Source of the DNA: Thermoplasmata archaeon
GTDB taxonomy: Archaea > Thermoplasmatota > Thermoplasmata > Lutacidiplasmatales > UBA184
NCBI GenBank assembly: GCA_035622275.1
Contig: DASPVQ010000020.1
Coordinates: forward strand, 86,067 to 150,066
DNA length: 64,000 bases
Direction of reading: 5' to 3'
A model generated the notes under the pieces. The model had not been told where the DNA came from. It saw only the letters and a program-made list of their open reading frames with translations, and searched no databases. Shown piece by piece: positions 12,159 through 60,490 of this stretch (within the stretch, counting starts at the first letter, position 1; every line of letters begins with the position of its first letter). Position numbers and translations under genes: made by a program.

Positions 12159-13554
12159 CGAGGTTGGTCGGTCGCCCCTCGACGGGATAGCCCGCGGTCA
12201 GCACGATCGGGCCCGGACCGGCGAACGAAGTCGAGTCCACCAGCGCCGCGACGTGGTCCCGGAGCTCGATCAGATTGCGGTGCGCGGGCACCGGGAGGGT
12301 CCGCACGCCGCGCACGAGCGCGAGACGGCGTCGGGCCGGCGCGGAGTGCGAGAGCGCGACCACCGGCGCGGTGGGTCGCAGGGCCGCCACGGTCCGCGCG
12401 GTCCGGCCGGAGTGCGTCGGCGTCGCGATCGCCCGCGCCCGCACTCCCTCGGCCAGCGTGACCGCCGCCGCCGCCACCGAGCGCTCGCTCGGCGCGCCCG
12501 GGGGCGTCGCCCGCAACAGCTCGCGCAGCCCTCGCGCGTCGTAGGCCGGCTCGGTCGCCTCGGCGATCCGGGCGAGCCAGCGGACCGCTTCGACCGGAAA
12601 TTCCCCGACCGCGCTCTCCTCGCTCAGCATCACCGCGTCGGCACCGTCGAGGACGGCGTTCGCGACGTCCGTCGCCTCTGCGCGCGTCGGCCGCGGAGAG
12701 TGGATCATGCTGAGCAGCATCTGCGTCGCCACGATCACGAACTTGCCGGCGACGTTCGCCTTGCGGACGAGCCGCTTCTGCTCGAGGGCGAGCCGCTCGA
12801 GCGGCACCTCGATGCCAAGGTCGCCGCGCGCCACCATGATCCCGTCGGCGGCGGACAGGATCCCGTCGATCTCGTCGAGCGCGTCGCGCCGCTCGATCTT
12901 GGCGATCAGACCGACCTCCCGGCCCCCGGCCTGGTGGTCGAGCCATCGGCGCGCGCGGACCACGTCGGAGGCGTCCCGGACGAACGAGAGGGCGACGAAG
13001 TCGGTGCCGCCGCGCAATCCGATCTGTGCGTCGTGCCGATCCTTCGGCCCGAAGACTTCGACGCGAAGATGGGCGCGGGGAAGATAGATGCCGGCGTGAC
13101 CGCTCACCGTTCCGCCGCTGATGACCCGGGTCTCGATCGCCCCGCGCCGGACGCGCTCGACGCGCAGCTCGACGACTCCATCGCCGAGGAGCACGGGATC
13201 GCCGGGCCGGGCCGCCCGGACGAACGACGGCAGCTGGACCCCGACCCGGCGACCGTCCCCCGGGCGGGAATCGGCGTCCAACCGCAACGACTGCCCGGGC
13301 TCGAGCGATATCGCCGGAGCGGCGAGCGCCCCGATGCGGATCTTCGGCCCTTGGACGTCCGCGACGATGGCCACGTCGCGCCCCGCCTGGCGGGCCGCCT
13401 CGCGCATCCGCCGCAGCGTGGCGCGATGCTCGGCGTCGGTCCCGTGCGAGAAATTGAGCCGAAAGCCGTCGGTCCCCGCCCGCAGGAGTTCCCGCAGCCG
13501 AGCCGGCCGATCGGATGCGGGCCCCACGGTAGCGAGGATCTTGGTCTTGCGCAC
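12142..13554 (-). CDS. pyk: Pyruvate kinase
   Basis: The N-terminus RKTKILATVGPAS and FRLNFSHG match pyruvate kinase. The start is taken at the GTG (V) codon 13554-13552, because the upstream part of the listed ORF would run antisense across the tRNA-Gln gene. Confidence 0.85.
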   Translation of the reverse strand: MRKTKILATVGPASDRPARLRELLRAGTDGFRLNFSHGTDAEHRATLRRMREAARQAGRDVAIVADVQGPKIRIGALAAPAISLEPGQSLRLDADSRPGDGRRVGVQLPSFVRAARPGDPVLLGDGVVELRVERVRRGAIETRVISGGTVSGHAGIYLPRAHLRVEVFGPKDRHDAQIGLRGGTDFVALSFVRDASDVVRARRWLDHQAGGREVGLIAKIERRDALDEIDGILSAADGIMVARGDLGIEVPLERLALEQKRLVRKANVAGKFVIVATQMLLSMIHSPRPTRAEATDVANAVLDGADAVMLSEESAVGEFPVEAVRWLARIAEATEPAYDARGLRELLRATPPGAPSERSVAAAAVTLAEGVRARAIATPTHSGRTARTVAALRPTAPVVALSHSAPARRRLALVRGVRTLPVPAHRNLIELRDHVAALVDSTSFAGPGPIVLTAGYPVEGRPTNLVTLVD

Positions 13555-13638
13555 GGCGACGGAGAGCGCACCGCCCTCATAGCCTCGGAGGCGCTGCCGG
13601 TGTTCGCGCTTTAGTACGGACCCCTCGTGTGCGTCCCC

Positions 13639-13711
13639 AGCCCCGTGGTGTAGCGGCCAAGCATGCTGGCCTTTGGAGCCGGCGACAGCGGTTCGAATCC
13701 GCTCGGGGCTA
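13639..13711 (+). tRNA. tRNA-Gln (anticodon UUG)
   Basis: A cloverleaf was folded by hand. The acceptor AGCCCCG pairs with CGGGGCU. The anticodon stem is CUGGC/GCCGG and the anticodon loop is CUUUGGA. The T-arm is AGCGG-UUCGAAU-CCGCU. CCA is not encoded. An AT-rich box TTTAGTA lies at about -29. Confidence 0.85.
13694..13711 (+). repeat. Direct repeat copy 1 (tRNA-Gln 3' end, att-like core CGAATCCGCTCGGGGCTA)
   Basis: This 18-mer recurs identically at 16179-16196. Its first 16 nt also recur at 18068-18083. Confidence 0.7.
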
Positions 13712-13745
13712 TAATTATAATAATTGAGGGGCCCTAGGTCCGGCG

Positions 13746-13967
13746 ATGGCAACCGACCGGATGACCTCGATTTCCATCCATGCGTCGACGCTGAGGATGC
13801 TCCAGCCCTTCAAGAAGGGGGACATGACCTGGGACGACGTACTCATCGATTTCATCGAGGAGCATGTCCCGAAGGAGTTCGTCCGCGCGATGATCCGGGA
13901 GGCGGAGAAGGGCCCGGGCATCCCGTTCGATCAGGTGTACCAGGAGCACGTTCGGCGGAGGGGTTAA
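13746..13967 (+). CDS. Ribbon-helix-helix antitoxin-like protein
   Basis: It is 73 aa. The N-terminal beta-strand plus helices (TSISIHASTLRML...WDDVLIDFIEE) fit an RHH/CopG fold. It ends 4 nt upstream of the toxin gene. Confidence 0.45.
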   Translation: MATDRMTSISIHASTLRMLQPFKKGDMTWDDVLIDFIEEHVPKEFVRAMIREAEKGPGIPFDQVYQEHVRRRG

Positions 13968-13970
13968 CGC

Positions 13971-14255
13971 GTGCCCGTCGTGGACATGAGCCACGAGGCG
14001 AGGCGACAGTTCTTGCTGCTCCCCCCAGAAATCGCCGACCGGTTCAAGGAGCTCGCGGACCATCTCAGGGAGAACCCCCACCGACTCCCTCCTTGGTGTG
14101 AGGTGAAGTCCATCGGTCGAGAGGGCGGAAAGGAGGTCTTTCGAGCACGTGTGGGCGAGTATCGCGCGTCCTACGTGTTCGATGGGGAGGTCATTCGATT
14201 CACACGATTCCGCTTACGGAAACACATGGGCTATTCCTCGCTTCCGAAGTCGTAG
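13971..14255 (+). CDS. RelE/ParE-family toxin
   Basis: It is 94 aa and basic. The stretch VGEYRASYVFDGEVIRFTRFRLRKH resembles the RelE/ParE core. It forms an operon with the upstream RHH gene. Confidence 0.55.
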   Translation: MPVVDMSHEARRQFLLLPPEIADRFKELADHLRENPHRLPPWCEVKSIGREGGKEVFRARVGEYRASYVFDGEVIRFTRFRLRKHMGYSSLPKS

Positions 14256-14407
14256 CGAACATCGCCTCCAATCACTCGCCCGGGACCAAAGTCACCTCCC
14301 GTTCCCCAGGATCTCAGAGTCAGTGGCGCAGCCGGGGTCGCGACCGAACCGCTGACCCCAAACGCGGGCGTCCGAGCCAGAGGTCTGAGGGCGTCGCCCA
14401 ACTGGCC

Positions 14408-14800
14408 CTAAATCGCTTTGCGCCGGATGATTCCTTGACAGAGCCCCACAAGGTGGCCCTCAGGATCCGTGAAGTAGGCGAACGCGACTTTTCCTCGACC
14501 CTTCGACGAGGGACGCTTGTCGGGGAAGGCTGTTGGGTTTCCGACCCGCTTCCCACCGAGCCGCTCGACCTCACGAAGAGCCGCCTCGAAGTCTGGGACC
14601 TCAACGAAGAAGGTCAGATGGCCCCCGTTCCCAGTCGGATCTGCTCCCAGTCCCCCGCCAATCCCGCGGGATGCCGCCTCGGTGACTCCGTAGTCCGCGC
14701 CTGGAGCGACATCGGCCGCCTTCCACCCGAAGAGGTCGCCGTAGAAGGTTCTGAGACGCTGCCCACTCTTTCCCGTTACCTCGAACCACGCAACGGGCAT
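14408..14800 (-). CDS. VOC (glyoxalase/bleomycin-resistance/dioxygenase) family protein
   Basis: The VOC N-terminal strand MPVAWFEVTGKSGQRLRTFYGDLFGWKA and the C-terminus AYFTDPEGHLVGL are present. The start is taken at the internal ATG 14800. Confidence 0.65.
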   Translation of the reverse strand: MPVAWFEVTGKSGQRLRTFYGDLFGWKAADVAPGADYGVTEAASRGIGGGLGADPTGNGGHLTFFVEVPDFEAALREVERLGGKRVGNPTAFPDKRPSSKGRGKVAFAYFTDPEGHLVGLCQGIIRRKAI

Positions 14801-14829
14801 CGGAAGATCATTCTCTGCTCTCATCGGTT

Positions 14830-15312
14830 CTATACGGCACCGCCCTTGCCGGTCTCGAGATAGTTCTTCATGCTGCCCATTAGGTAGGTCCAGGCCCCAT
14901 CGCATGGGCCGAAGCAGGCGCATTTGGGTGTCAGACCCGCGTGGAGGAAGCGGAGTTCGGAGCGGCTGGCGCCTTTGGAGCCGATCTGGAAAAGGATCTT
15001 CGTCCCAATGAGCTCCTTCTTTTCGGACTGGTCAACGACCTTCCACTCGACCCTCGCCGGCCGCGTCGCCTTCACTAGGCTGAGCGTCCACACGTCGTTC
15101 GGGAATTTCAGGACCAGCTTGCTACCTTCCTTGTCCGAGCCGTCGATGTTCTTGCACCACCACCCGCGCAACCCGCCGGCGGTCGAGACGGTCTCGAAGA
15201 CGTCATTCGCCGAAGCGTCAACTTCGAGCGTCCGTGTGACTCCTGCAGGGGGTACAACGTCCACGTGCTCGACCTCGGTACTCGCCGTCATCGAACGGGC
15301 TATGGAATCCAT
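14830..15312 (-). CDS. SRPBCC (AHSA1/polyketide-cyclase-like) domain protein
   Basis: It is 160 aa with an alpha/beta grip pattern (GGLRGWWCKNIDG...ELRFLHAGL). The start may instead be the ATG at 15291. Confidence 0.55.
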   Translation of the reverse strand: MDSIARSMTASTEVEHVDVVPPAGVTRTLEVDASANDVFETVSTAGGLRGWWCKNIDGSDKEGSKLVLKFPNDVWTLSLVKATRPARVEWKVVDQSEKKELIGTKILFQIGSKGASRSELRFLHAGLTPKCACFGPCDGAWTYLMGSMKNYLETGKGGAV

Positions 15313-15420
15313 ACTATTTTATTCGACTACGGCGGAAAACCATAGCGAGCTCGAGTTGAGTACTCGACAGGCTCTGAGACGGGACGCGGCCGTGACCAAA
15401 TACTTGTTATTTCATAGGTA

Positions 15421-16062
15421 GTGCGGAGACCTCCGGTGATCGTCGGCCCCCAAGCGCACAACAAGGGACAGCCAGCCCCCTACCTGCTGTTCACACGCCC
15501 CGAGGGTTCGATTGGCTGCCCTATCCGCGCGTCACTAGGCGTACTCGGCCACAAGTGGTCGTTCATTATCCTTCGAGACGTAGCGTTCCTTCCCGCTCCG
15601 ACCTTCAACCTGATTCAGCACCGTAATCCGGGCCTGACGCCCAGGGTTCTTTCTGAACGCCTAAAGGAGCTGCGTGCGACGCAGCTCATCGAGAAGGTCG
15701 CCCATCCGAGGGACGAGCGTGTGTACTTTTACAGACTCACGGACAAGGGGCGGGACGCGATACCGGTTCTCGCTTCGATGATGCAGTTCGGAATGAAGCA
15801 TCTCGCAGAGAAGGTATTCGAGGACGGCAAGCCGAGGACAATGAAGGATTGCTTCCCGGGCCTGGCGGAACGTTTTCTCGGAGAACTTTTCGACTACGCG
15901 ATCTCAGACTTCAAGTCGGGCGTGGGACCCCCAGAGGGGATTCTTCTCTCGCCTTCAACCGCCCCGAAGTTCGGCGTGGCTGTCCGTAGCGGACCTCTGG
16001 CTTCCGGGGGACCGCGGCGAAAGAGGAAGCGCTTCGTGGTCCGACCTTCCCGTCCGCCTTAG
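15421..16062 (+). CDS. HxlR-family winged-helix transcriptional regulator with a C-terminal extension
   Basis: The HxlR core CPIRASLGVLGHKWSFIILRDV...LSERLKELRATQLIEKV...YRLTDKG is present. It is 213 aa. The start is GTG. Confidence 0.65.
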   Translation: MRRPPVIVGPQAHNKGQPAPYLLFTRPEGSIGCPIRASLGVLGHKWSFIILRDVAFLPAPTFNLIQHRNPGLTPRVLSERLKELRATQLIEKVAHPRDERVYFYRLTDKGRDAIPVLASMMQFGMKHLAEKVFEDGKPRTMKDCFPGLAERFLGELFDYAISDFKSGVGPPEGILLSPSTAPKFGVAVRSGPLASGGPRRKRKRFVVRPSRPP

Positions 16063-16178
16063 CAACGAGTTCCCGCTAAGCCAATTTCATCTCGCCGTGA
16101 CCGGATCGAGCGCTTCAATCACTCCCCCAAGGGGGTGGCAGCACCGTGCTTGTATCCCATTCTGAAGAAAAATACCAG

Positions 16179-16196
16179 CGAATCCGCTCGGGGCTA
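16179..16196 (+). repeat. Direct repeat copy 2 (18/18 identical to tRNA-Gln 3' end)
   Basis: It lies in an intergenic stretch after the HxlR gene. The flanking sequence is unrelated to the tRNA body. Confidence 0.7.
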
Positions 16197-16255
16197 CCCA
16201 TTCCGGCGGGCCCGCGTGGCGCTAGCCTTTTGGGCCGAACGCTAGTCCCCCTCAG

Positions 16256-17731
16256 ATGGCGATGCGGGAACCGGCCCCGCTGGACCTGTTCGCGTCGCGA
16301 CTGATGCGTCGCTTCCGGATTCCGGGACTATCGCTCGGAATCTCGAGGAACGGCCGACCGATTTTGTCCCGGGGCTACGGCTGGCGCGACCGCGAACTTC
16401 GACGGCCCGCCTCCTCGAAGACGGTGTACGGGATCGCCTCGATCACGAAGTCGTTCACCGCGCTCGCCATACTGCGGCTCGAAGAGGAAGGACTCCTGCG
16501 GGTGACGGACCCCGTCGTGCGCCATCTTCCGGAGTTTCGGAGTCCGAATCCCCGCTGGACGGCGAAGATCTCGCTCCACCACCTCCTCACCCACTCCTCC
16601 GGAATGCCGCCGTTGGCAGGGACGTACCTCTCCCAGCTTCGTTCGCGCGCCCGCGACCCGTCCTTCGACGCGCGCTCCGTCCGGCGGGTGGGCATCGACC
16701 TTGAGGCGGGGCCGCTCGACAGCTTCGAACAACTGCTGGAGTACCTCACTACGGTGCGGTACCAACCCATCGCTCCGCCGGGCCATCAGTTCAGCTACTC
16801 GAACGAGGGGTTCATGCTGCTCGGGGCGGTGATCGAGCGCAGCGCCGGCCGCACCTACGAGAACTATCTCGACGAGCAAATCCTACGACCGTGTGGAATG
16901 CGGCACACGACCTGCGATGCCGGGATCATGCTTCGCTACCCGGAAGTCACCACCCTGTACTCACCACAACGAATCCGATCCCGCGTGCGGATGGTCCCCT
17001 CCCAGAACTGCGGCATGGCCGGGATCCTCCGACCGGCGGGTGGACTGCTGACCAATATCGAGGACCTTCTGCGCTACCTCGAGATATTCCGCACCGGAGG
17101 GAGAGCCGGCCGGGAGCGGATCCTGACCCCGAAGAGCGTGAGCAAGATGCTCCGTCCCGCCATCCCCATCGACACGGACCGTTTCTACGGCTACGGCATC
17201 GTGGTTCGACCCGCCTACCATGGTCACTTGGTCGCGTACCATGGCGGCGGGACGAAGGGCGTCTCCTCAGAGTTCGCGGTCGTTCCACGCAAGGGCATCT
17301 GCGGGGCGGTTCTGGCCAACGTGGAGCGCGTCCCGTCGTTCAACGTCCTGTTCGCGGGGATCAATCGACAGCTCGGGTTACCGATGTCGACCCCGTTCTT
17401 CGAGACGCCGTCCGTGGTCTCCCGCGCCGGTCCGCTCGCGGAGTTCGAGGGGTGGTACTGGGGCGGGGACGGCTTCAAATGCAACGTGAGGGCGGGTCGG
17501 CGCGAACTGACCCTACGTTTCTGGGAGCTCGATGGTAACACGCACGTCGTCCGCGCGGCGCCGTGCGGAACCGATCGATTCTTGATTCGGCTCTTTGGCC
17601 TTCCGTGGACCATCAGATTCGTGCGGGATGCTTCGAAGCGGGTGTCCGCGGTGTTCGTGTCGTACTGGTGGTACCGTCGCCGCACCGAGCAAGAGGTTCG
17701 ACACGGCCGACGAAACCGGTTCGCCTGGTGA
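16256..17731 (+). CDS. Serine hydrolase of the beta-lactamase / penicillin-binding-protein (class C-like) family
   Basis: The SxxK active-site motif SITKSF is present, along with YSNEGF (YxN-like) and HGG (KTG-position) motifs. It is 491 aa. Confidence 0.75.
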   Translation: MAMREPAPLDLFASRLMRRFRIPGLSLGISRNGRPILSRGYGWRDRELRRPASSKTVYGIASITKSFTALAILRLEEEGLLRVTDPVVRHLPEFRSPNPRWTAKISLHHLLTHSSGMPPLAGTYLSQLRSRARDPSFDARSVRRVGIDLEAGPLDSFEQLLEYLTTVRYQPIAPPGHQFSYSNEGFMLLGAVIERSAGRTYENYLDEQILRPCGMRHTTCDAGIMLRYPEVTTLYSPQRIRSRVRMVPSQNCGMAGILRPAGGLLTNIEDLLRYLEIFRTGGRAGRERILTPKSVSKMLRPAIPIDTDRFYGYGIVVRPAYHGHLVAYHGGGTKGVSSEFAVVPRKGICGAVLANVERVPSFNVLFAGINRQLGLPMSTPFFETPSVVSRAGPLAEFEGWYWGGDGFKCNVRAGRRELTLRFWELDGNTHVVRAAPCGTDRFLIRLFGLPWTIRFVRDASKRVSAVFVSYWWYRRRTEQEVRHGRRNRFAW

Positions 17732-18067
17732 GGGCGAAGTCCCGAGGTCCCCACGAGAACGTGACTCTCGTGCGACGGGAGTCGAAGTTCATCAGGAGGA
17801 TTCGGATCGGGCTCGATTCCGTTCCCCGTCGATGGCGGAGCACGTCCCTCGACGCGCTCCATCGACGACCTCGACCTCCCTCGCCGACCTCGCGGACGGA
17901 CCCCCCGGCGAGGTTCTTCACAGGTCCACGACACCGGCGTCTTAGGCTACCCGAGCGTGCACGACAGCACGGTCGGACGGTACGCCGAGGTGGGAACCCG
18001 CGAGCTGAAGGACGCCTTGGATTCGGCCACCGGCCTGGGGGTGTGCACCGCGATCGGCAACCGACCA

Positions 18068-18083
18068 CGAATCCGCTCGGGGC
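18068..18083 (+). repeat. Direct repeat copy 3 (16/16 identical to tRNA-Gln 3' end)
   Basis: It sits in a high-GC region with no convincing ORF. Identity ends after GGGGC. Confidence 0.6.
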
Positions 18084-18812
18084 GGTCCGAGAGCGATTTC
18101 TGCCCAGTGCCCACATGAACACAACGATCGCGGCGGCCCGGCCGTCGCTACGCCACCAAAATTCGCTCCCTGCCCGTACCTCTCTTCCACGCCGTAGCGA
18201 CTGGTCCGACCGCGTTCGGGGGTTCGAACGGGCCACCGCTCCTTTCTAGGAAAGCAGCGCCGTTACCGACTGTCCGACACGTTCGCGGAAGCGGCCACGG
18301 CGAGGACTTGGCCACGCGAGAGGCCGGTCTTCCTCGGGAGGCTCGGTCCCGATCGTTCACGCCATGCGGGACGCTTCGGGCGAAGACTTCCGGGGCGGGG
18401 TCGAAGATTAGGTCAGAGCTCGACCGGAACCAAGGGGTGGATGCCGGCAACGCGCGGGACATCCTGATCGTCGCGGGGCGAGATCGGATGGCTGGCTGCG
18501 TCCCGGACGCGCTCGCCTTCGTCGAACTCGCGCAAGCCCGAAGAGTTCGGGTCGTCGCGGCTCCTCGAGCGACCGACACCGATTCTCCGGCAAGCCGGCG
18601 GACTCCCACCCTACATCCCCGGGCCGCGGAGTTCGAGAGTGAACTGACGCCGGAAGCGGACTCGAGCCGCGATCGCGGCCATCCCGGAAGGCCGCCAGCA
18701 TACCAAGACCCGGCGCGAGCCGGGCCGATCGCGGACGATCGTTCCCGAGGCCGCCGCACGGGTCCGCAGCTCGAAGGTTCGCGCGACGCACCGCTGCTCG
18801 GAACCCAGACGG

Positions 18813-19298
18813 TCACCGACCGCGAGCGGCCCGGGATCTCGCATCGGTCGCCAGGGCTTCGTGGCGATGGGGGTGCTCGTGCCCCGTCGTTCCCCCGGCG
18901 ACGGCCGGGGTGCCGAGCGTGTATCGGCCGTAGGCGATGCCCTTGACACCCCGCAGGTCCTCAGCGGCGGCGACCACCTCGTCGCTCCTTCCCACGAGAC
19001 CGATCAGCTGCATGCACGAGCCGCCCTCGAGATGGACGTGGGAGGAGGACCGGACGTGCGTCCCCCAGCGATGCTCGGCGGCGGTGAGCCGCTGGAGGAC
19101 ATTGGGGGTGTCATGTCGGTACACGAGCAGGACGCCGGCCACCGAATCGGAACCTGGGTCGCCCAGCGAGCGTTCCGCGAGCTCCTTGCGAATGAGAGCG
19201 CGGATCGCATCCGACCGGCTACGGCAGTTCCGCTCCTTCACCCAGCTGTCCAGAAGGGCGAGGAGCTCCCGTTCGAGGGAAACGCCCAGGCGCACCAC
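18813..19298 (-). CDS. nikR: Nickel-responsive regulator NikR
   Basis: An N-terminal RHH (VVRLGVSLERELLALLDSW...RSDAIRALIR) is followed by a C-terminal ACT-like metal-binding domain with His/Cys ligands (HVHLEGGSCMQLIGL, HEHPH). The GTG start choice is approximate. Confidence 0.7.
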   Translation of the reverse strand: MVRLGVSLERELLALLDSWVKERNCRSRSDAIRALIRKELAERSLGDPGSDSVAGVLLVYRHDTPNVLQRLTAAEHRWGTHVRSSSHVHLEGGSCMQLIGLVGRSDEVVAAAEDLRGVKGIAYGRYTLGTPAVAGGTTGHEHPHRHEALATDARSRAARGR

Positions 19299-19505
19299 GT
19301 AGTCGCCCCTTCGTTGCCGCAGATGGGCCGCCGGGACGGCGACATCTCCCGCTAGCGTTCGTCGTCGCGGGTGCCTCACCGTACCGCTCCTTTCGGGGAG
19401 GCGAGCTCGACTCCGTTCATAATGGTACGGATGGGGTCCCACCCGGCGCGACGCGTGCGTGTTACGATTAAGAAATACGACCGAAGCAGTTAAGAACCGC
19501 CGCGG

Positions 19506-20675
19506 TTGGCACGCTCAGTGTCTTTTGCCTCGACCGAGATTCGGAACCCGATCGTCCTTTCCCGACAGGAGTGGGTCAAGGTCATCTTGATCTACGCCGG
19601 CATCGCCGCCGCGACCGGCGTCGGGATCTATCTTACCTTCTGGGTCGGTACCCAGTACGCGATCTTCTGGCCGCTGGGCATCCTGGCCTACACGCTGGGT
19701 CTACGGCACGGCGTGGACGCCGACCACATCTGTGCCATCGACAACACCACGCGCAAACTGATCCAGCAGGACAAGCGCCCGACCACGGTCGGGACCTGGT
19801 TCTCCCTGGGTCACTCGACCATCGTCGTCGCCATGCTGGGTCTGCTGGTCGTGGCCAGCCGATTCATCGAGAGCAACCTGCCCGCCTTCGAGGCCGACGG
19901 AGCGATCTTGGGCACGATCATCTCCGGAGCGTTCCTCTACATCATCGCGCTGATCAACTTCCTGATCTTCTGGCAGGTCTATCTCATCTACCGGGAACTC
20001 CGGACGGGCCGGCTCGACCAGAAGAAGCTGGACGAGACGCTGCTGAAGCGGGGCTTCATGAATCGCTACTTCGGCAAGCTGTTCCGATTCGTCAACGAGC
20101 CCTGGCAGATCTATCCGATCGGGGTGCTGTTCGGACTTGGCTTCGACACCGCGTCCGAGGTCGCTCTGATCGCGATCACGGTGACGACGGCCGCCCTCGC
20201 GTTCCCGCTGTGGATGGTGATGGTGCTGCCGTTCATGTTCACCTGCGGCATGGTCCTCACGGACACCACCGACGGATTCGGGATGCGCTTTGCCTACGGG
20301 TGGGCCTTCATGAAGCCGATCCGGAAGGTCTACTACAACCTCACGATGACGGTGATTTCGGTCCTCGTCGCCATCGTGATCGGGACGATCGAACTGCTCG
20401 GAGTGCTCGCCTCGGAGCTCAATCTGAGCGGGGGACCGTTCGGGTTCTGGAACACGATGAACTGGTTGAACAACTCGAATGGGCCCGGCGACATCGAGAT
20501 CTGGGGCTGGTGCGGGATTCTCATCATCGCGCTGTTCTGCGGGTGTTGGGCGGTCTCTATCGCGATCTATCGATGGAAACACATCGAGGACGTGGGGTTC
20601 GGCAAGCCCCCGACGCCGGTGAACCCGGTCGACGCCGCGCCGGAGCCGGGCACTTCCTCCTCAGAACCTGCGTGA
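19506..20675 (+). CDS. NiCoT-family nickel/cobalt transporter (HoxN/NixA-like)
   Basis: The signature HGVDADH (HX4DH) lies in TM2, and GHSTIV is present. It is multi-pass. The start codon is uncertain (TTG 19506 or GTG 19518). Confidence 0.75.
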   Translation: MARSVSFASTEIRNPIVLSRQEWVKVILIYAGIAAATGVGIYLTFWVGTQYAIFWPLGILAYTLGLRHGVDADHICAIDNTTRKLIQQDKRPTTVGTWFSLGHSTIVVAMLGLLVVASRFIESNLPAFEADGAILGTIISGAFLYIIALINFLIFWQVYLIYRELRTGRLDQKKLDETLLKRGFMNRYFGKLFRFVNEPWQIYPIGVLFGLGFDTASEVALIAITVTTAALAFPLWMVMVLPFMFTCGMVLTDTTDGFGMRFAYGWAFMKPIRKVYYNLTMTVISVLVAIVIGTIELLGVLASELNLSGGPFGFWNTMNWLNNSNGPGDIEIWGWCGILIIALFCGCWAVSIAIYRWKHIEDVGFGKPPTPVNPVDAAPEPGTSSSEPA

Positions 20676-20909
20676 GCGCGGGATCCCGGTCGAGGATCCC
20701 GGGCGGGCCCGCGGCGAACGGAGACGGGGCAGGTTCCACCGAAGGGGGGGAGCGTGTTCGGCGGCGGACGGCCGTAGGCTACTCCTTCCCTCCCACGTCG
20801 TGGCGAACCGACCCGTCGAGCGCGAGGTCCCGGACACCGACGACCCGCGTCTCCGTGGATATACGTATCCCGACAATATTTACATAGCAAGAACTCATCC
20901 ACCCGCTTC

Positions 20910-22826
20910 GTGGCGGGCGCAACCGCGGCCGTCGACCAGGTCCTCGTCGCGGACGCTTCCGATAAGCAGCTCCGCCGCGCGCTGTCGTTTCAAGATCTCT
21001 TCATGATCTCGTTCGGCGGGGTCGTTGGCTCGGGCTGGCTCTTCGCCGTCGCGGCCTCCTCGCACCTCGCGGGCCCGGCCTCCGTGGTGTCGTGGATCAT
21101 CGCGGGGATCTTCATGATCGCCATCGCCCTCTGCTTCTCCGAGACGGCTTCGGCCCTGCACAAGACGGGCCAGCTCGTGCGCGGTCCGCTCTACACCCAC
21201 GGTGGTTTCACCGGGTACATCATCGGCGCCGCCTACATCCTCGGATCGATCACGGTCCCGGCGATCGAGGCCGAGGCCGTCATCACGTATGCGAGCACCT
21301 ACGAGCCGACGTGGCTGGGTTCGAACGGGCTGATCACTCCGACCGGCCTGGTCTTCGCCGTTCTGCTCCTGGTTGGATTCTTCTTCCTGAACTACGTCGG
21401 CGTGCGCTTCCTCGGCGCCTTCAACACGGTCGTGACGTGGTGGAAGTTCATCATTCCGGTGTTGACGATCATCTTCCTGTTCACGATCTTCCACTCGACG
21501 AACTTCACCGTGTCCGGCGGGTTCATCCCGTTCGGATGGCCCGGGGTCTTCATCGCGATCCCGTCGGCCGGCATCGCATTCGCCTACCTCGGGTTCCGGG
21601 GCGCGGCGCAGTTCTCGGGCGAAGCGAAGAACCCGCAGCGCGACGCGCCGAGGGCGATCATCCTGTCGATCACCGCGGCCGTGATCCTCTACGTCCTGCT
21701 CCAGGTCGTGTTCATCGGCGCCATCAACTGGGGCGCGAACGGTCTGGCGCCGGGCGACTGGGCCGGCCTGAGCTCGGTCACGACGACGCTGTACTCGGCG
21801 CCGTTCTACACGGTCATGCAACAGGCCAGCGTCGCGCTGCTCGGCGGGTTCGCGACGATCCTCCTCATCGACGCCATCATCTCGCCGTCGGGGACCGGTT
21901 GGGTGTTCCTGGGGGAGGCGACGCGCGCGGTCTACGGAGTCGGCGCGGACGGATTCTTCCCGCGGGGCCTATTGAGCATCCAGCGCCGGACCCGGATCCC
22001 TTGGGTCGCGCTCATCGCGACGACGGTGGTCGGCGGGATCTTCATCATACCGCTGCCGTCCTGGTACCTGTTTGCCGGGTTCGTGACCGACGCCTTCACC
22101 ATCTCGCTCCTCATGGGACCGCTGACCCTCTTCGTTCTACGCTGGCACGCCCCGAACATCAAGCGGCCGTTCCAGTTGCCCGGCGCGCTGGTCGTCGGCG
22201 GCCTCGCCTTCGTCGGCGGCTCCCTCGTGATCTACTGGTCCGAGTTCGGCGGGCTCTTCTACGTCTTCTCGGTGATCTTCATGGTCCTCCCGCTGTTCTA
22301 CTTCTTCTACGCACCGCGGAACCTGGGGATCAAGCCGTCCACGGCGCTCGCGATCGGGATCGTCCAGCTGGCCGTGGTGGTGATCGACACCGTCTGGGGC
22401 TACATCAACCTCTACATCGGCAACGTCGTGTCGCTCAGCCCGACGCCCGTCACGGTCTCGAACTCGACCCTCACGATGACCTTCGCGATCTACTACGTGG
22501 TGCTCCTCCTCGCGATTTGGGTGCCCACGCTCGTGACGACGATGCTCGCCCATCCGGACGGCAGGCGCATGATGCGCGCGGGCTACTGGGTCCTGGTCCT
22601 GCTCTCGGTCGAGATGGTGCTCTCCTGGTTCTCGGTGCTCGGCACGTTCCCGTTCGGGCCGTTGAACGGCAACCCGTACATCCCGTTCCCCTACGACACG
22701 ATCGCGATGGCGATCATCGCCGCGGGCATCTACGCCTGGGGCCTCATGAGCGGCTACCGCACCAAGGACCTCGCCGAGGTCGAGGCCCTGATGGCCCGAC
22801 CCGAGGCGGACGCCGCCACGGCGTGA
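20910..22826 (+). CDS. APC-superfamily amino-acid permease
   Basis: It is 638 aa with about 12 or more TM helices. The stretch FMISFGGVVGSGWLF resembles the APC consensus. Confidence 0.8.
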   Translation: MAGATAAVDQVLVADASDKQLRRALSFQDLFMISFGGVVGSGWLFAVAASSHLAGPASVVSWIIAGIFMIAIALCFSETASALHKTGQLVRGPLYTHGGFTGYIIGAAYILGSITVPAIEAEAVITYASTYEPTWLGSNGLITPTGLVFAVLLLVGFFFLNYVGVRFLGAFNTVVTWWKFIIPVLTIIFLFTIFHSTNFTVSGGFIPFGWPGVFIAIPSAGIAFAYLGFRGAAQFSGEAKNPQRDAPRAIILSITAAVILYVLLQVVFIGAINWGANGLAPGDWAGLSSVTTTLYSAPFYTVMQQASVALLGGFATILLIDAIISPSGTGWVFLGEATRAVYGVGADGFFPRGLLSIQRRTRIPWVALIATTVVGGIFIIPLPSWYLFAGFVTDAFTISLLMGPLTLFVLRWHAPNIKRPFQLPGALVVGGLAFVGGSLVIYWSEFGGLFYVFSVIFMVLPLFYFFYAPRNLGIKPSTALAIGIVQLAVVVIDTVWGYINLYIGNVVSLSPTPVTVSNSTLTMTFAIYYVVLLLAIWVPTLVTTMLAHPDGRRMMRAGYWVLVLLSVEMVLSWFSVLGTFPFGPLNGNPYIPFPYDTIAMAIIAAGIYAWGLMSGYRTKDLAEVEALMARPEADAATA

Positions 22827-22862
22827 TCCTACTCTCGGGTTGGGCCCGGGCCGACGGGTCCC

Positions 22863-23765
22863 TCACTTCCACTGGTAGAGGGCCTGGCCGCACTTCTCAC
22901 AGACTTCCGTGTTGAAGTTCGGGTGAAAGCGCGGGTGCGTCATCCGGTGGCACCACGGACACTCGAAGCGCGGTAGCGGGAACGGAATTCCCGCGTCGTC
23001 GTGGAGCAGGTCCATCAGGATCGGCTGGGTCGATGCCGGTGGCATGCCCCGGGACGCTTCGAGCCGGTCGAGGACATGGGAGCATCCCTCGAACGCGGCG
23101 ACGATCCCGGCAACGCGCTCCGGCTCGCTCGTGGTGGGAAGGGTCAGCGTCGCCTCCGTGCCGTACACGGCGAGCGTCGGCAGGTCCCGCTCGGGGTGGG
23201 GGGAGAGGGCGGCCGCGGCGCGCAGGAACCGGTGGACCTCGGCCTCCCGGTAGACGGCCGCCATCCCGGCGTCGTAGGTGTAGACCACCCAGCGCCGGTC
23301 GAGGTCGGCGTCTCCGGTTCGGGTCCCCTTCGCGCTCCCCCGGCCCTGGCGGTACCGCTCGAGGATCCGGTCCGTGCCGACCGAGCCGCGGCTGAAGACC
23401 CGGGGCCGGATTCCGGCGTAGAGCCACGGCATCCGGTAGTGGGGCATCGCCGGTGGGTCGATGAGCCGCACCGAGGTCGTGATCCCGACCTGCATCTCGG
23501 GCGAGAAGAGCCGCGGCTCCAGGAAGCTGAGCTCCCAGAGCCGGCCGGCGGCGGGGCCCACGAGGGACGGGGGCCCGGACGGAGCGCGGCGGCCCGGCGG
23601 TGCGACGGCTCGCTCGCTACGGAAGCCCGGGAACTGGGAGGCCATGCGGGCCGACAGGCGCTTCCAGAACTCGGCGGGGACGAGCGGCGCCTCGATGTTC
23701 CGCATCCGGGCGGCGGTCGAACGGAGCCACCGACCAAAAAAGCTCCGGCTGCCCGTGGCGAGCAC
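22863..23765 (-). CDS. Hypothetical protein with C-terminal zinc ribbon
   Basis: It is 300 aa. The C-terminus carries CPWCHR...CEKCG (CxxC-x15-CxxC). No other recognisable motif was found. Confidence 0.4.
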   Translation of the reverse strand: MLATGSRSFFGRWLRSTAARMRNIEAPLVPAEFWKRLSARMASQFPGFRSERAVAPPGRRAPSGPPSLVGPAAGRLWELSFLEPRLFSPEMQVGITTSVRLIDPPAMPHYRMPWLYAGIRPRVFSRGSVGTDRILERYRQGRGSAKGTRTGDADLDRRWVVYTYDAGMAAVYREAEVHRFLRAAAALSPHPERDLPTLAVYGTEATLTLPTTSEPERVAGIVAAFEGCSHVLDRLEASRGMPPASTQPILMDLLHDDAGIPFPLPRFECPWCHRMTHPRFHPNFNTEVCEKCGQALYQWK

Positions 23766-23786
23766 GGTGCCGGCCCGAGGGCCGCC

Positions 23787-24371
23787 TCACGGCCCCGGGG
23801 GCCGGCTGATCCGGATCCTCCGGATGCGGTGGACCGCGCGGCCACGACGCTCGTCCACTTCGTGCATGGCGACTGAGAGATCGTGACCTCGGACGAGGTC
23901 GAGGAGCGGGCCGACCGATTGCGCCGGCAGGTTTCCGTAGACCGAGCCCGGACCCGCGAAGAACACATGCCGCCGCGCTTCGGCGGTCGAACGCGGGTCC
24001 GCGCCGAGGTCGTCCAGCACCAGCACGAGGCCCACGCGGGACCAGCGGCGCGTGGTGGGCGCGCCCCAGCGGTACTGGTAGGTGAAGCCGCGCGCGTCCG
24101 CGCGTAATGCGATGACCGGGTTGATGAGGCCCGTGCGCAGGCTGAGGAGGATCAACCCGATGCCGAGGACGATCAGGAGGATCGCGAGGACCTCGTCGGC
24201 GAGCGGCCCGGTCCGGGCGAGCGGGCCGACGAGGTAGCCCCCGATCCCGATGAAGGCGCTTCCGATCCCGAGCCCCGTGGCCGTCACCGGGATGCGGGTG
24301 CGAAGAAAGGCGCGCGCCTCCTCGCCGAGGTCGAGCTCGAGCTCGGGCGCCGCCACGCCACGGCCCGCCAT
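23787..24371 (-). CDS. Hypothetical membrane protein
   Basis: Two to three TM helices (GLGIGSAFIGIGGYLV, LAILLIVLGIGLILL) precede a soluble domain. The start is taken at the internal ATG. Confidence 0.35.
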   Translation of the reverse strand: MAGRGVAAPELELDLGEEARAFLRTRIPVTATGLGIGSAFIGIGGYLVGPLARTGPLADEVLAILLIVLGIGLILLSLRTGLINPVIALRADARGFTYQYRWGAPTTRRWSRVGLVLVLDDLGADPRSTAEARRHVFFAGPGSVYGNLPAQSVGPLLDLVRGHDLSVAMHEVDERRGRAVHRIRRIRISRPPGP

Positions 24372-29912: not shown

Positions 29913-31029
29913 CGCACGCGGGAGGTCCCCGACATTAATACGGTCGGCGCGTCGGCGGTCGAGGAGCCCTACGTCGCGCGAGCTACCGGAGCTGCCGATC
30001 GATACCGCGCTGCTGCGCGGCTTCCGCTTCGACTGCCGGCCCGATTGCGGTCTCTGCTGTTACGCGAGCCCTCGCATCGAAGCGCGGGAGCGTCCTCAGC
30101 TCCTGGCGATCGCGCCGGAGGCCGAGTTCCGGGGCAGCCCCGCGGATGGGTTCCTCGCCGCGCGCCCGCTCGGCGGTGCGTGCCAGTTCCTTCGGGAGCT
30201 CCGGTGCGCGGTTCATTCCGCACGGCCGAGCGCGTGCCGCGAGTTCCCGATCACCGTGCACGTGGGGCTCCGCTTGCAAGCGACGGTGGTCCTCGGCTGT
30301 CCCGGTCTGGACCTCACGGGCTTGCTGGCGTATCGGACGTCGCAGTCGCGCGACGAGCCGGTCGGGCTCGCGGAAGAGCTCGCGGCCGCCCGGGCCCGGG
30401 CGGCGTGGGCCCGCCCCGACCGGCTCCGCGTCGGCGCGCGCGACCATCGACGGATCGTCCGAACCCTCGTGCGCGACGGCCGTTGGACGGACGAACAGGA
30501 GGTGCGCGCGCGACTGCGCGGTCGGCTGCCCTGGCCGGAAGCAGGGAACTTTCCGGTCCCCGAGCCACCTCCGGCCGACGAAGGGCTCGAGGGACTGCCC
30601 CTCTTCTTCGACGGGCGGCCCGGTCCGGTCGCGATCGCCGCGGCGCTCGGCGGTTGGGAGCTGCTGGAGCTGCGAGCGGCCGGCGGCATCGAGCGCTCGC
30701 TCGGTGTGATCCCGGCCCCGGATCGGCCGCCGCCGCTCCACGCCACGGGCCGGGAGCTCCTCGAGGCGTACCTCCGCTACTGGCTCGAGCGGGACGCGCT
30801 GTTCGGGACGGCACTGCTCGCGGCCGCGCAGGCCGGTGACGGAAGCGTCGAAGAATGGGTGGCCGAAGACCTTCGGGCGATCGGCGCGCTCGTGCTCGCC
30901 CGGGCGGACGTGCGGGCGCGCGGGCGGCGGGGGGACCCCGGTCCGCTCACGGCCGACGACATCGCCGACGGCATCCGCGCGAGCGACCTCGAGCTGCTCG
31001 ACCGGCCGACCTGGGGCGACCGGCTCTAG
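29887..31029 (+). CDS. YkgJ/UPF0153-type CxxxCxxCC metal-chelating domain protein (long form)
   Basis: The motif CRPDCGLCCYAS is followed by additional Cys residues (CQF, CAVH, CREFP). The start is uncertain. Confidence 0.45.
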   Translation: MMSLATCTIARGRSPTLIRSARRRSRSPTSRELPELPIDTALLRGFRFDCRPDCGLCCYASPRIEARERPQLLAIAPEAEFRGSPADGFLAARPLGGACQFLRELRCAVHSARPSACREFPITVHVGLRLQATVVLGCPGLDLTGLLAYRTSQSRDEPVGLAEELAAARARAAWARPDRLRVGARDHRRIVRTLVRDGRWTDEQEVRARLRGRLPWPEAGNFPVPEPPPADEGLEGLPLFFDGRPGPVAIAAALGGWELLELRAAGGIERSLGVIPAPDRPPPLHATGRELLEAYLRYWLERDALFGTALLAAAQAGDGSVEEWVAEDLRAIGALVLARADVRARGRRGDPGPLTADDIADGIRASDLELLDRPTWGDRL

Positions 31030-32381: not shown

Positions 32382-32606
32382 ATGGCGATCGAGGACGAGG
32401 TCTCCGCCAACGCGGTCAAGGTCTACAAGGCGATGAAGGAGATGGGGACGATCTCGGAAGAGAAGATGGGCACCGCCGAGCGGATCACCCAGAGCGTGCG
32501 CCTGCCCAAGACCATGGTCCTGAACGCGCTCCAGGAGCTGCAGGGGAAGGGCTTCGCCCGGCGGAAGGTCCGGGAGAAGGCAGCGGGTTACTACCTCACC
32601 CGCTAG
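32382..32606 (+). CDS. Small winged-helix-like DNA-binding protein
   Basis: It is 74 aa. A helix-turn-helix-like core (TAERITQSVRLPKTMVLNALQELQGKGF) is present. It is divergent from the HDAC gene. Confidence 0.35.
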   Translation: MAIEDEVSANAVKVYKAMKEMGTISEEKMGTAERITQSVRLPKTMVLNALQELQGKGFARRKVREKAAGYYLTR

Positions 32607-49215: not shown

Positions 49216-50087
49216 AGGTAGTTCGCCTCCAGCGTCCTTCGGAAGGCGGGGTCGCCCCAGGCCAGCACGCTCGTGCGGCGCTCCAGGCCGAGCGGGAACG
49301 GCTCGAGGCTGTGCCCGGTCGCGTCCGCGATCCCCCCGCCGGCCTCCAACAGGATGCGGTAGGCCGCGGCGAGGTCGGTCGCGCGCAGGTTGCGCTCCTC
49401 CGTTCGGTTCTCGAAGAAGTAGCCGTCGGCGCTGCCCTGCGCCACCATGAGGATCTCCTGCGAAGCGCAGCCGAGCGACCGCACCCGCCGTGCCTTGCCG
49501 GCGAGCCGGAGCGATCGCTCGGTCGCGTTGGAGCCGAGATTGAGGAAGACGGTCTCGGTCCGGGCGTCCCAGGCGCGCACGCGGATCGGACGGCCATCGC
49601 GGAACGCGCCGGTCCCTTCGGCCGCCCACCAGGTCGTCCCGTGGTGAAGATCCCGGACGAGGCCGGCCTCGATCCCGGCCAGGTGGTCGTGGCCGAGGGC
49701 GAGGCAGACGGCGTAGAACGGACGGTTGCGCAACGCGTTGTGGGTGCCGTCGATCGGGTCGACGACGAGCGTCCGCGCGCCGCCCCGCTCCACGCGCCCT
49801 ATCTCCTCGGACAGCAGGTTCCAGTCGACCCCCTCGGCGTCGAGGACGCGAAGGATCTCCGTCTCGGCCAGGTGGTCGAGCTCTTCGGTCGGGGTGCCCG
49901 AGGCGCCGATCGCGACGACGTCGGCCCGGTGCGGAGAGCTCTGGGCGTCCCGGACGATCTCGTGCACCCGGACGCTCGCCCGGTAGAGGACCTCGAGGTC
50001 GCGGGGGTCGCGCCCGGCCACGCGGCCGGGACGTGGGTCGCGGTTATGACGCCTTCTCGGCGGGCGGATTACGTTATGTCGCCCCAC
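49212..50087 (-). CDS. Inositol-monophosphatase/FBPase-family phosphatase (candidate NADP phosphatase)
   Basis: The metal-binding motifs VVDPIDGT and WDxxA-like WDARTE are present. It is about 290 aa. The true start may be a few codons downstream of the listed GTG. Confidence 0.7.
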   Translation of the reverse strand: MGRHNVIRPPRRRHNRDPRPGRVAGRDPRDLEVLYRASVRVHEIVRDAQSSPHRADVVAIGASGTPTEELDHLAETEILRVLDAEGVDWNLLSEEIGRVERGGARTLVVDPIDGTHNALRNRPFYAVCLALGHDHLAGIEAGLVRDLHHGTTWWAAEGTGAFRDGRPIRVRAWDARTETVFLNLGSNATERSLRLAGKARRVRSLGCASQEILMVAQGSADGYFFENRTEERNLRATDLAAAYRILLEAGGGIADATGHSLEPFPLGLERRTSVLAWGDPAFRRTLEANYL

Positions 50088-59325: not shown

Positions 59326-59506
59326 GGATCCGACCTCGCTTCCTCGCGTTGACGTTCGCGCCCTCGATAGATAAGCCGAGGCCTCCACTCGCAGGACGGG
59401 TCGGCGCCGCGCTCGCGCCCTCGCGCTGCGCACGCGCGCGGCGCGCGCGCGTGCGCCCGCGCGGGCGGCAAGTTTCATAGCAGCGAACGGTTAGGCCCGC
59501 GAGGCT

Positions 59507-59613
59507 GCCCTGGTAGTCTAGCGGTCTAGGATGTAGGTCTGTCGAGCCTGCGACTCGGGTTCGAAGGATCCGGGGGTCGCGCGCCCCCGGACCCGGAACT
59601 CCCGACCAGGGCG
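59507..59613 (+). tRNA. tRNA-Asp (anticodon GUC) with a 34-nt non-canonical intron in the T-loop (intron about 59566-59599)
   Basis: A hand fold was used. The acceptor GCCCTGG pairs with CCAGGGC (7/7). The anticodon stem is TAGGT/GCCTG and the anticodon loop is CTGTCGA. The T-stem TCGGG/CCCGA flanks TTCGAA-[34 nt]-T, which restores TTCGAAT after excision. The intron forms a GC-rich hairpin (CCGGGGG-TCGCGCG-CCCCCGG). A TCCG/CGGA helix next to the splice sites is BHB-like. Confidence 0.65.
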
Positions 59614-59641
59614 CCTCCCCGCGCGCGGGGCGCGCCGCGGC

Positions 59642-60490
59642 ATGGACCCCTTATGCCCGCTCGGGCCTAGGCCGGTCGTGGCCGAAGGCTCGACGCCCCG
59701 CCGGTCGTCATCGCCGTATCTCTCGCACATCGTGGGCGACACGCTGCGCGACCTGCAGGAGCGCCGGCTGCTCGAGCTCGTGCGGGCCGCGCCGGTGCCG
59801 AACCATCTCGCGATCATCATGGACGGCAACCGGCGCTTCGCGGGCGCCCACGGCCTCGGCATCAAGGACGGCCACGCCGCGGGCCGCGACACCCTCGAGC
59901 AGCTGCTCAACTGGTGCCTCGAGCTCCAGATCCGGATCCTGACCGTCTACGCCCTCTCCACCGAGAACCTCTCCCGGTCGCCGGAGGAGGTCGAGGGACT
60001 GATGGACCTGTTCGACCGGGCCCTGCGGGACATTGCGGTGGACGAGCGCGTGCACCGCCACCAGATCCGGGTCCGGGTGATCGGCGACCGCGCGGCGCTC
60101 CCGGCACGCGTGCAGGAGGCGATCGGCATCGCGGAGCGGGCGACCGAGCGTTACGACGCCTACCAGTACAACGTCGCGCTGGCCTACGGCGGCCGTGACG
60201 AGATCGTCGAGGCGATCCGGGCGATCGCGAGGGAGGTTCGCGACGGGGCGCTCGACCCGGAGCGGATCGACTCGACGGCCGTTTCCCGCCACCTCTACAC
60301 GCGAGACCTGCCAGACCCCGATCTCATCTTCCGGACCAGCGGGGAGGAGAGGATCTCGAACTTCCTGCTCTGGCAGTCCGCCTACAGCGAGCTGTACTTC
60401 TCGGACGTGCTCTGGCCCGGCCTCACGCGCCTGGAGTTCCTCCGCGCGATCCGGGCGTTTCAGCTGCGTCGCCGTCGCTATGGGGAGTGA
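59642..60490 (+). CDS. uppS: cis-Prenyltransferase (undecaprenyl-diphosphate synthase family)
   Basis: The blocks HLAIIMDGNRRFA, DLIFRTSGEERISNFLLWQSAYSELYF and RRYGE are present. Confidence 0.85.
   Translation: MDPLCPLGPRPVVAEGSTPRRSSSPYLSHIVGDTLRDLQERRLLELVRAAPVPNHLAIIMDGNRRFAGAHGLGIKDGHAAGRDTLEQLLNWCLELQIRILTVYALSTENLSRSPEEVEGLMDLFDRALRDIAVDERVHRHQIRVRVIGDRAALPARVQEAIGIAERATERYDAYQYNVALAYGGRDEIVEAIRAIAREVRDGALDPERIDSTAVSRHLYTRDLPDPDLIFRTSGEERISNFLLWQSAYSELYFSDVLWPGLTRLEFLRAIRAFQLRRRRYGE

Follow-up and report, generated by a model that had tools for sequence, protein, structure and literature searches.

The 64,000-nt stretch of DNA analysed here (the window) comes from contig DASPVQ010000020.1 of a Thermoplasmata archaeon and carries, at positions 59507-59613 of the forward strand, a tRNA-Asp(GUC) gene with a 34-nt intron in the T-loop, between tRNA positions 59 and 60. 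The split architecture recurs, with covariation, in 17 related genomes and 106 metagenome contigs, which places it far beyond chance. The gene very probably belongs to a high-GC archaeon of the Lutacidiplasmatales/TMEG clade and bears a protein-spliced intron of the bulge-helix-bulge (BHB) type.

Exon 1 (59507-59565, forward strand) comprises tRNA positions 1-59: the 5' strand of the acceptor stem, the D-arm, the anticodon arm with the anticodon GTC at 59540-59542, the variable loop, the 5' strand of the T-stem (59555-59559), and the T-loop residues U54-A59 (59560-59565). It is recognised from the sequence, from ARAGORN on the spliced form, and from a partial Rfam tRNA match. The intron, GGATCCGGGGGTCGCGCGCCCCCGGACCCGGAAC, occupies 59566-59599 on the same strand, and its excision restores a canonical tRNA. 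Exon 2 (59600-59613, forward strand) provides U60, the T-stem 3' strand CCCGA (59601-59605), the acceptor 3' strand CCAGGGC (59606-59612), and the discriminator G73 (59613). In the sequence, the acceptor stem GCCCTGG/CCAGGGC has 7 bp, the D-arm reads GTCT-AGCGGTCTA-GGAT, and the anticodon arm reads TAGGT-CTGTCGA-GCCTG, with a 7-nt loop that presents the anticodon GTC. The variable loop has 4 nt, the T-stem is TCGGG/CCCGA, and the T-loop is TTCGAA followed by the 34 nt and a final T. CCA is absent from the gene; the bases 3' of G73 are CCT. The ARAGORN structure and the sequence together display the GUC anticodon, the 7-bp acceptor stem, the GG of the D-loop, and the T-loop UUCGAAU of a tRNA-Asp(GUC). 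The predicted spliced product is a 73-nt tRNA, compared with 107 nt unspliced.

In silico removal of 59566-59599 lets ARAGORN recognise the gene as tRNA-Asp(gtc), folded as a regular cloverleaf. The first-pass annotation of the window had proposed a tRNA-Asp(GUC) gene split by a 34-nt T-loop intron; the call on the spliced form bears this out, with the site at 59/60, and the stems, loops, and exon letters that it gave match the sequence exactly. Presented with the unspliced 59507-59613, ARAGORN returns no tRNA even in intron mode (-i), because that mode expects the intron in the anticodon loop. Its sole call in the whole 64-kb window is tRNA-Gln(UUG) at 13639-13711, which is also the sole tRNA at the Rfam gathering threshold. 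A permissive local Rfam scan yields the partial tRNA match at 59507-59561 (18.8 bits) and no further partial tRNA match in the window. Only two tRNA genes, the tRNA-Gln and the split tRNA-Asp, lie within the 64 kb examined.

Across the other loci examined, the intron mode of ARAGORN mostly reports spurious giant introns. Distorted calls of a 'tRNA-Asp' occur in L002 (2610-2688), L004 (2807-2898), L006 (2790-2880), L012 (2807-2898), L015 (817-890), L045 (2861-2935), and L065 (2878-2954). All seven end within the intron; six begin 1-2 nt early, and that of L015 begins at the true 5' end. Such calls could pass into annotations as seemingly valid genes with wrong ends. The first-pass annotation had also foreseen that scanners lacking archaeal intron models would miss the gene, as ARAGORN and Rfam do here, and the mis-calls in seven relatives go in the same direction. 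Finders without archaeal BHB models either miss the gene or report a tRNA-Asp that ends inside the intron, so that in this clade, abundant in acid soil and peat, a genome can seem to lack tRNA-Asp or be misannotated. tRNAscan-SE 2.0 in archaeal mode seeks BHB introns at any position by default (PMC8450103).

The interruption is conserved. In 17 related species-level genomes, exon 1 is 91-98% identical and lies just upstream of uppS, the downstream neighbour of the tRNA gene (UPP-synthase family, PF01255), with the exception of L015, where exon 1 lies ~2 kb upstream of uppS. In all 17 genomes the T-loop is interrupted at the same position by 31-34 nt, and exon 2 is invariant in the 18 genomes formed by the window and its 17 relatives. 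We then scanned metagenomes with exon 1 alone as the anchor, leaving the sequence after A59 free to vary, and at least 120 contigs matched. Among the 120 matches listed, 106 contain a complete intron of 29-34 nt (99 distinct sequences), and seven high-GC contigs end at or within the intron. The other seven are intron-less; all of them have 31-46% GC and belong to other lineages. An intron identical to that of the window is found in L151. Pooling the genomes and the listed metagenome contigs gives 110 distinct introns of 29-34 nt, the set of variants used below. UppS is also encoded on 92 of the listed contigs, at 61-100% identity to that of the window, and contigs across this range keep the order of an IF-2B-family gene (PF01008, the upstream neighbour of the tRNA gene), the split tRNA-Asp gene, and uppS. 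The intron is thus present across the breadth of the clade.

This conservation bears on the idea that the locus is a tRNA-Asp pseudogene disrupted by an insertion, with a functional intron-less copy elsewhere in the genome. The window covers 64 kb of the genome, with one other tRNA, which leaves room for such a copy. However, the exons are invariant or carry only compensatory changes across genomes with UppS at 61-100% identity; the length, phase, and pairing of the insert are kept through more than 100 variants; and a conserved promoter-like box lies upstream. In addition, no intron-less copy with this exon 1 is present on any high-GC contig among the matches listed. A decaying pseudogene would display none of these features, and we regard this explanation as extremely improbable.

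Intron-less tRNA-Asp(GUC) genes are present on two contigs with 43% GC, L081 (4783-4855) and L106 (4683-4755). These contigs encode a large TPR/ATPase protein that is closest to proteins titled 'Thermoplasmata archaeon'. The T-loop, the T-stem 3' strand, and the acceptor 3' strand of the two intron-less genes are those of the predicted spliced product. Compared with the split gene, the acceptor, anticodon, and T arms match and the D-arm alone differs. The distribution of the two forms suggests that the high-GC clade either gained the intron or alone retained it. On three further low-GC contigs (L092, 1231-1742; L137, 1085-1683; L185, 818-1201), an intron-less tRNA-Asp is clustered with a tRNA-Tyr and a tRNA-Met, both of which have anticodon-loop introns of 51-111 nt according to the intron mode of ARAGORN.

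To phase the BHB, we took the known pairing between anticodon arm and intron and transposed it to the T-arm. In a canonical intron at 37/38, the anticodon stem serves as the outer helix (h), the four intron bases before the 3' bulge are paired with positions 32-35, and each bulge is cut just after its second base. The geometry at the T-arm is identical: positions 49-53/61-65 correspond to 27-31/39-43, 54-57 to 32-35, 58-59 to 36-37, and 60 to 38. The difference is that the canonical intron lies in the anticodon loop, whereas this one lies in the T-loop. The 37/38 intron of the tRNA-Met in L092, used as a control, agrees with the phasing, with three of the four pairs of the central helix (H) formed and one mismatched. 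The substrate of the archaeal endonuclease comprises two 3-nt bulges, a 4-bp helix between them, and the flanking helices h and h' (PMC3239211, PMC5829648).

Each of these elements can be located in the window, on the forward strand. The outer helix h is the 5-bp T-stem (59555-59559 with 59601-59605). The 5' strand of the central helix consists of U54, U55, C56, and G57 (59560-59563), which pair with the 3' strand H', CGGA, at 59594-59597 (intron nucleotides 29-32). The 5' bulge is formed by A58, A59, and the first intron nucleotide, G (59564-59566), with a predicted cut at 59565/59566 in keeping with the 3-4-3 geometry. The 3' bulge is formed by intron nucleotides 33-34, AC, and U60 (59598-59600), with a cut at 59599/59600 predicted by the phasing argument. 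Between the bulges, the inner helix h' and its hairpin (59567-59593) fold into the closing pair G59567-C59593, an A-C mismatch, and an 8-bp stem, in which TCCGGGGG (59569-59576) pairs with CCCCCGGA (59584-59591) around the loop TCGCGCG (59577-59583). In silico, the sequence thus presents a 3-4-3 motif, with U54-G57 paired to CGGA and the bulges AA|G and AC|U.

The variants keep these elements. H' is CGGA in 84 of the 110 distinct introns, CGAA in 20, CGAG in three, CGGG in two, and GGAA in one; it makes four of four pairs with U54-G57 in 109, and a purine always stands opposite U54 and U55. The two intron bases of the 3' bulge are AC in 99 introns, AT in six, AA in two, GC in two, and AG in one. 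The closing pair of h' is pairable in all 110. A random intron of the same composition satisfies the H' and closing-pair conditions together 2% of the time. In addition, phasing at 59/60 is the only one under which the mature T-loop is the same, TTCGAAT, in all 110 variants, and a shift of one base either way gives variable products. Enforcing the BHB on the window sequence gives a fold of -26.7 kcal/mol, compared with -30.1 kcal/mol for the minimum free energy (MFE) fold, a cost of 3.4 kcal/mol; across the 110 variants the median cost is 3.4 kcal/mol (range 0-4.6).

The first-pass annotation had placed a relaxed BHB core on a different helix, formed by TCCG (intron nucleotides 4-7) and CGGA. 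This assignment does not hold. The helix makes all four pairs in only three of the 110 variants, and BHB symmetry would require it on the opposite side of the 5' bulge; it is an accident of the sequence in the window.

The same features speak to the possibility that the 34 nt are retained, giving a mature tRNA-Asp with an enlarged T-loop and an extra GC hairpin as a structural expansion. The hairpin of the insert is very stable and could in principle protrude from the T-loop. But what is conserved is what a BHB needs, namely CGRR paired with U54-G57 (109 of 110) and two 3-nt bulges in fixed phase, and a retained arm would not require these. Pairing of U54-G57 would moreover abolish the contacts between T-loop and D-loop that are implied by the conserved G18-G19 and UUCGAAU, and lower-GC Thermoplasmata have the same tRNA body without the insert. 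Retention is therefore very unlikely.

Covariation points in the same direction as the motif counts. Pairs were counted over 90 distinct sequences in a model-guided alignment, which is fitted to the model structure and so biased towards it: 97.6% of cells are paired, compared with 90.1% in shuffles, and 23 pairs show double changes, compared with a shuffle mean of 8.7. All ten pairs of the intron hairpin show compensatory double changes. In the central helix, 99.7% of cells are paired in this alignment, and the sole changes turn U-G into U-A through the intron base. When the partners are slid by 1-3 columns, pairing falls to 26-60%. An unfitted MAFFT alignment of the 18 genomes gives the same trend, with all stems 100% paired. 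The pattern of variation indicates that the junction structure is maintained by selection.

The bias of the fitted alignment weighs against the assignment of a BHB intron, and so do several further observations. The plain MFE fold of the window sequence shows a 6x6 internal loop and no BHB; it is usual for an MFE fold to miss a BHB motif. In 73 of the 110 variants, that of the window included, h' consists of one pair, a 1-nt irregularity, and then the long stem. At least two contiguous h' pairs are present in the other 37, 12 of which have 9-10; the class of 29-30-nt introns reaches a perfect helix of 9-10 bp, as in L129. Judged by the strictest definition, which asks for 2 bp or more in h', the window's motif is thus slightly relaxed. 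In L125 (419-523; intron TCGGCGCGCGGCCACCGCCGCCGCCGGGAAAC), H' is GGAA and makes three of four pairs with U54-G57; here CGGG may serve as H' next to a 3' bulge of 4 nt, or the motif may be relaxed. Finally, no EndA-like open reading frame (ORF) is present in the window or in any of the 200 other loci examined (1.2 Mb).

How much the short h' matters depends on the enzyme. Endonucleases of the alpha4 and alpha'2 types need a strict 3-4-3 hBHBh' motif (PMC3239211), and those of the (alpha-beta)2 and epsilon2 types accept relaxed motifs (PMC3239211, PMC5829648). Since the modelled junction has its two 3-nt bulges and its 4-bp helix, it should in principle be cleavable by EndA of any type. The suggestion of the first-pass annotation that the intron has the form of a substrate for the archaeal splicing endonuclease thus finds support in the modelled fold.

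We propose the following pathway, in which cleavage, ligation, and the identities of the enzymes are inferred from the established biochemistry of archaeal tRNA splicing. Transcription of the split gene would start at a promoter of its own. The T-arm of the precursor would mimic an intron-containing anticodon arm, with the T-stem 49-53/61-65 as the outer helix, U54-G57 and the intron CGGA as the 4-bp central helix, A58-A59-G(i1) and A-C-U60 as the 3-nt bulges, and the GC-rich hairpin of the intron as the inner helix. EndA would cut both bulges, after A59 and before U60. An RtcB-type ligase would then join the exons into a 73-nt tRNA with the T-loop UUCGAAU, and CCA would be added later. Two other mechanisms were considered and rejected. 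A self-splicing group I or II intron has a catalytic core of hundreds of nucleotides, compared with 29-34 nt for the insert, and no Rfam intron family is detected up to an E value of 10. A split or permuted tRNA gene is incompatible with exons that are colinear and 34 nt apart.

Because the BHB determinants alone are conserved while the loop and stem letters vary freely, the intron is likeliest, judged from its variation, a vertically inherited insertion whose splicing is obligatory and which has no sequence-specific function of its own. The BHB intron could instead be spliced and also kept for a function, such as ordering the modification of the T-loop, serving as a maturation checkpoint, or protecting the tRNA's 3' half from integrating elements. 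Positions 54, 55, and 58 would be paired or bulged until splicing, so unbroken retention could reflect a delay in the modification of U54, U55, and A58. Among the matches listed, with at least 106 complete genes, no loss is seen on high-GC contigs; the length is tightly bounded at 29-34 nt; and intron-dependent modification is documented in other systems (PMC4090602). Yet the free variation of the loop and stem argues against a dedicated role, and retention is explicable by the difficulty of precise deletion in a probably essential single-copy gene. Scans of viral contigs for the uninterrupted 3' segment and for exon 1 gave no matches. Use as an attachment site is unsupported by these scans, and protection from integrating elements was rejected. 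On balance, a retained function is unlikely, and the account of an inherited insertion that must be spliced is preferred.

The host was placed by the window's own sequence and its relatives. The GC content of the window is ~72%, and the clade consists of soil and peat Thermoplasmata at 68-72% GC. The sources of UppS homologues with 77-100% identity are metagenomes of soil and peat, together with metagenome-assembled genomes (MAGs) titled 'Thermoplasmata archaeon', and the closest species-level genomes are all uncultured Thermoplasmata. The relatives AcS1-67, AcS1-45, and AcS5-34 share the AcS naming with the study that defined the order Lutacidiplasmatales, formerly TMEG. AcS1-67 and AcS1-45 are listed in Table 1 of that paper, where GC is 67-71%, and in the type genome tRNAscan-SE 2.0.5 with option -A is stated to have recovered tRNAs covering all 20 amino acids (PMC9287336). 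The paper nowhere mentions introns (PMC9287336). The UppS homologues, the genome titles, and the AcS MAGs named in PMC9287336 together assign the host to a Thermoplasmata lineage of the phylum Thermoplasmatota, in the Lutacidiplasmatales/TMEG clade. The first-pass annotation had taken the intron position as a hint of a Thermoproteota-like lineage, which proves to point in the wrong direction.

Introns at 59/60 are documented elsewhere. This position is among the listed non-canonical sites (PMC4090602), and ARMAN-2 (Ca. Micrarchaeum) has published 59/60 introns in pre-tRNA-Cys(GCA) and pre-tRNA-Pro(GGG) (PMC3239211, PMC5829648). The ARMAN-2 introns share the T-loop site and the short length, and that of tRNA-Pro is described as having a strict hBHBh' motif, as here. 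In contrast, ARMAN-2 is a DPANN host with an epsilon2 EndA, its tRNA-Cys has a 13-nt intron with a relaxed hBH motif minus one bulge, and both cases are single-genome observations, whereas the intron described here is fixed order-wide in more than 100 variants. Introns of the same protein-spliced BHB class outside 37/38, with 59/60 among the listed sites, are also found in Thermoproteales, other Crenarchaeota, and Thaumarchaeota (PMC4090602, PMC4033280, PMC8450103). Those genomes carry many introns, often several per gene, and have an (alpha-beta)2 EndA with a specificity loop (PMC4090602, PMC4033280), whereas here the host belongs to the Thermoplasmata, and one such intron is seen among the two tRNA genes in the 64 kb examined.

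Closer to the host, older reviews hold that Euryarchaeota with alpha4 or alpha2 enzymes have introns at the canonical position only (PMC4090602), and this region of the archaeal tree is described in reviews as possessing alpha'2 endonucleases of strict specificity, with introns restricted to the canonical position. Table S7 of tRNAscan-SE 2.0 counts 25 non-canonical introns in 144 euryarchaeal genomes, including six in three genomes of Methanomassiliicoccales and one in five genomes of Thermoplasmatales (PMC8450103). These belong to the same phylum and are similarly rare, and such introns are thus not unprecedented there, but the table gives neither positions nor isotypes, and Lutacidiplasmatales is not in the data set (PMC8450103). 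Since 59/60 introns are documented and non-canonical introns have already been counted in Thermoplasmatota, the split tRNA-Asp gene represents a known intron class and not a new mechanism. As far as the literature examined shows, it is an undescribed order-wide example of that class.

The split tRNA-Asp leaves the understanding of archaeal tRNA splicing unchanged. It adds a well-supported, order-wide intron at a non-canonical position for Thermoplasmatota, where such introns are rare, and its more than 100 natural variants reveal which nucleotides a BHB in the T-loop must keep. The intron is also usable as a sequence marker for the clade. A stronger claim, to which we give only a small chance, is that the whole order Lutacidiplasmatales/TMEG needs splicing to remove a T-loop intron from the transcript of its tRNA-Asp gene, which is probably the only one it has. 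If that is true, and if EndA is of the ordinary alpha'2 type and lacks a specificity loop, the position of an intron would be unconstrained as long as its motif is near 3-4-3. The ~110 natural variants would then serve as a mutational map of the tolerance of the enzyme, for example towards the one-pair h' of 73 of the 110.

Upstream of the tRNA gene, a promoter-like box, AAGTTTCATAG, lies at 59470-59480 on the forward strand, 27-37 nt 5' of the mature 5' end, and contains the TATA-like TTCATA (59474-59479, forward strand). A second conserved TA follows at 59492-59493 of the same strand, near -14. In the 18 orthologous upstream regions, which are otherwise unalignable, the box, with the consensus AAGGTTCATAG, shows little or no variation, and the same holds for the downstream TA. 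By position and spacing alone, the box and the TA would correspond to an archaeal TATA box and a proximal promoter element. A different AT-rich box, CTTTAGTA, precedes the tRNA-Gln gene at 13639 by a similar distance.

Two GC-rich palindromes flank the locus. One, a GC inverted repeat with 13 perfect base pairs, GCGCACGCGCGCG / CGCGCGCGTGCGC, and a 3-nt loop, spans 59428-59456, just 5' of the promoter-like box. The other, a 14-nt GC palindrome, CCCCGCGCGCGGGG, lies at 59617-59630, 4 nt past the 3' end of the tRNA gene and ahead of uppS. GC palindromes are present upstream in the relatives too, with differing sequences. The UppS ORF at 59642-60490 encodes 282 aa from the first ATG, compared with 270-271 aa in its homologues. 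Translation probably begins ~12 codons farther downstream, near 59678, and the gap between the tRNA gene and uppS would be wider as a result.

Elsewhere in the window, Rfam reports three matches below the gathering threshold, each possibly due to chance: a CRISPR-DR29 at 30145-30179 on the reverse strand (27.1 bits, gathering threshold 39), a C/D-box sRNA sR44 at 32429-32481 on the forward strand (23.9 bits, threshold 45), and a Guanidine-II riboswitch at 49630-49674 on the reverse strand (23 bits, threshold 32). The GC content is 0.66-0.67 at 12001-24000, compared with 0.69-0.74 in the rest of the window, and the intact tRNA-Gln(UUG) gene at 13639-13711 lies inside this low stretch.

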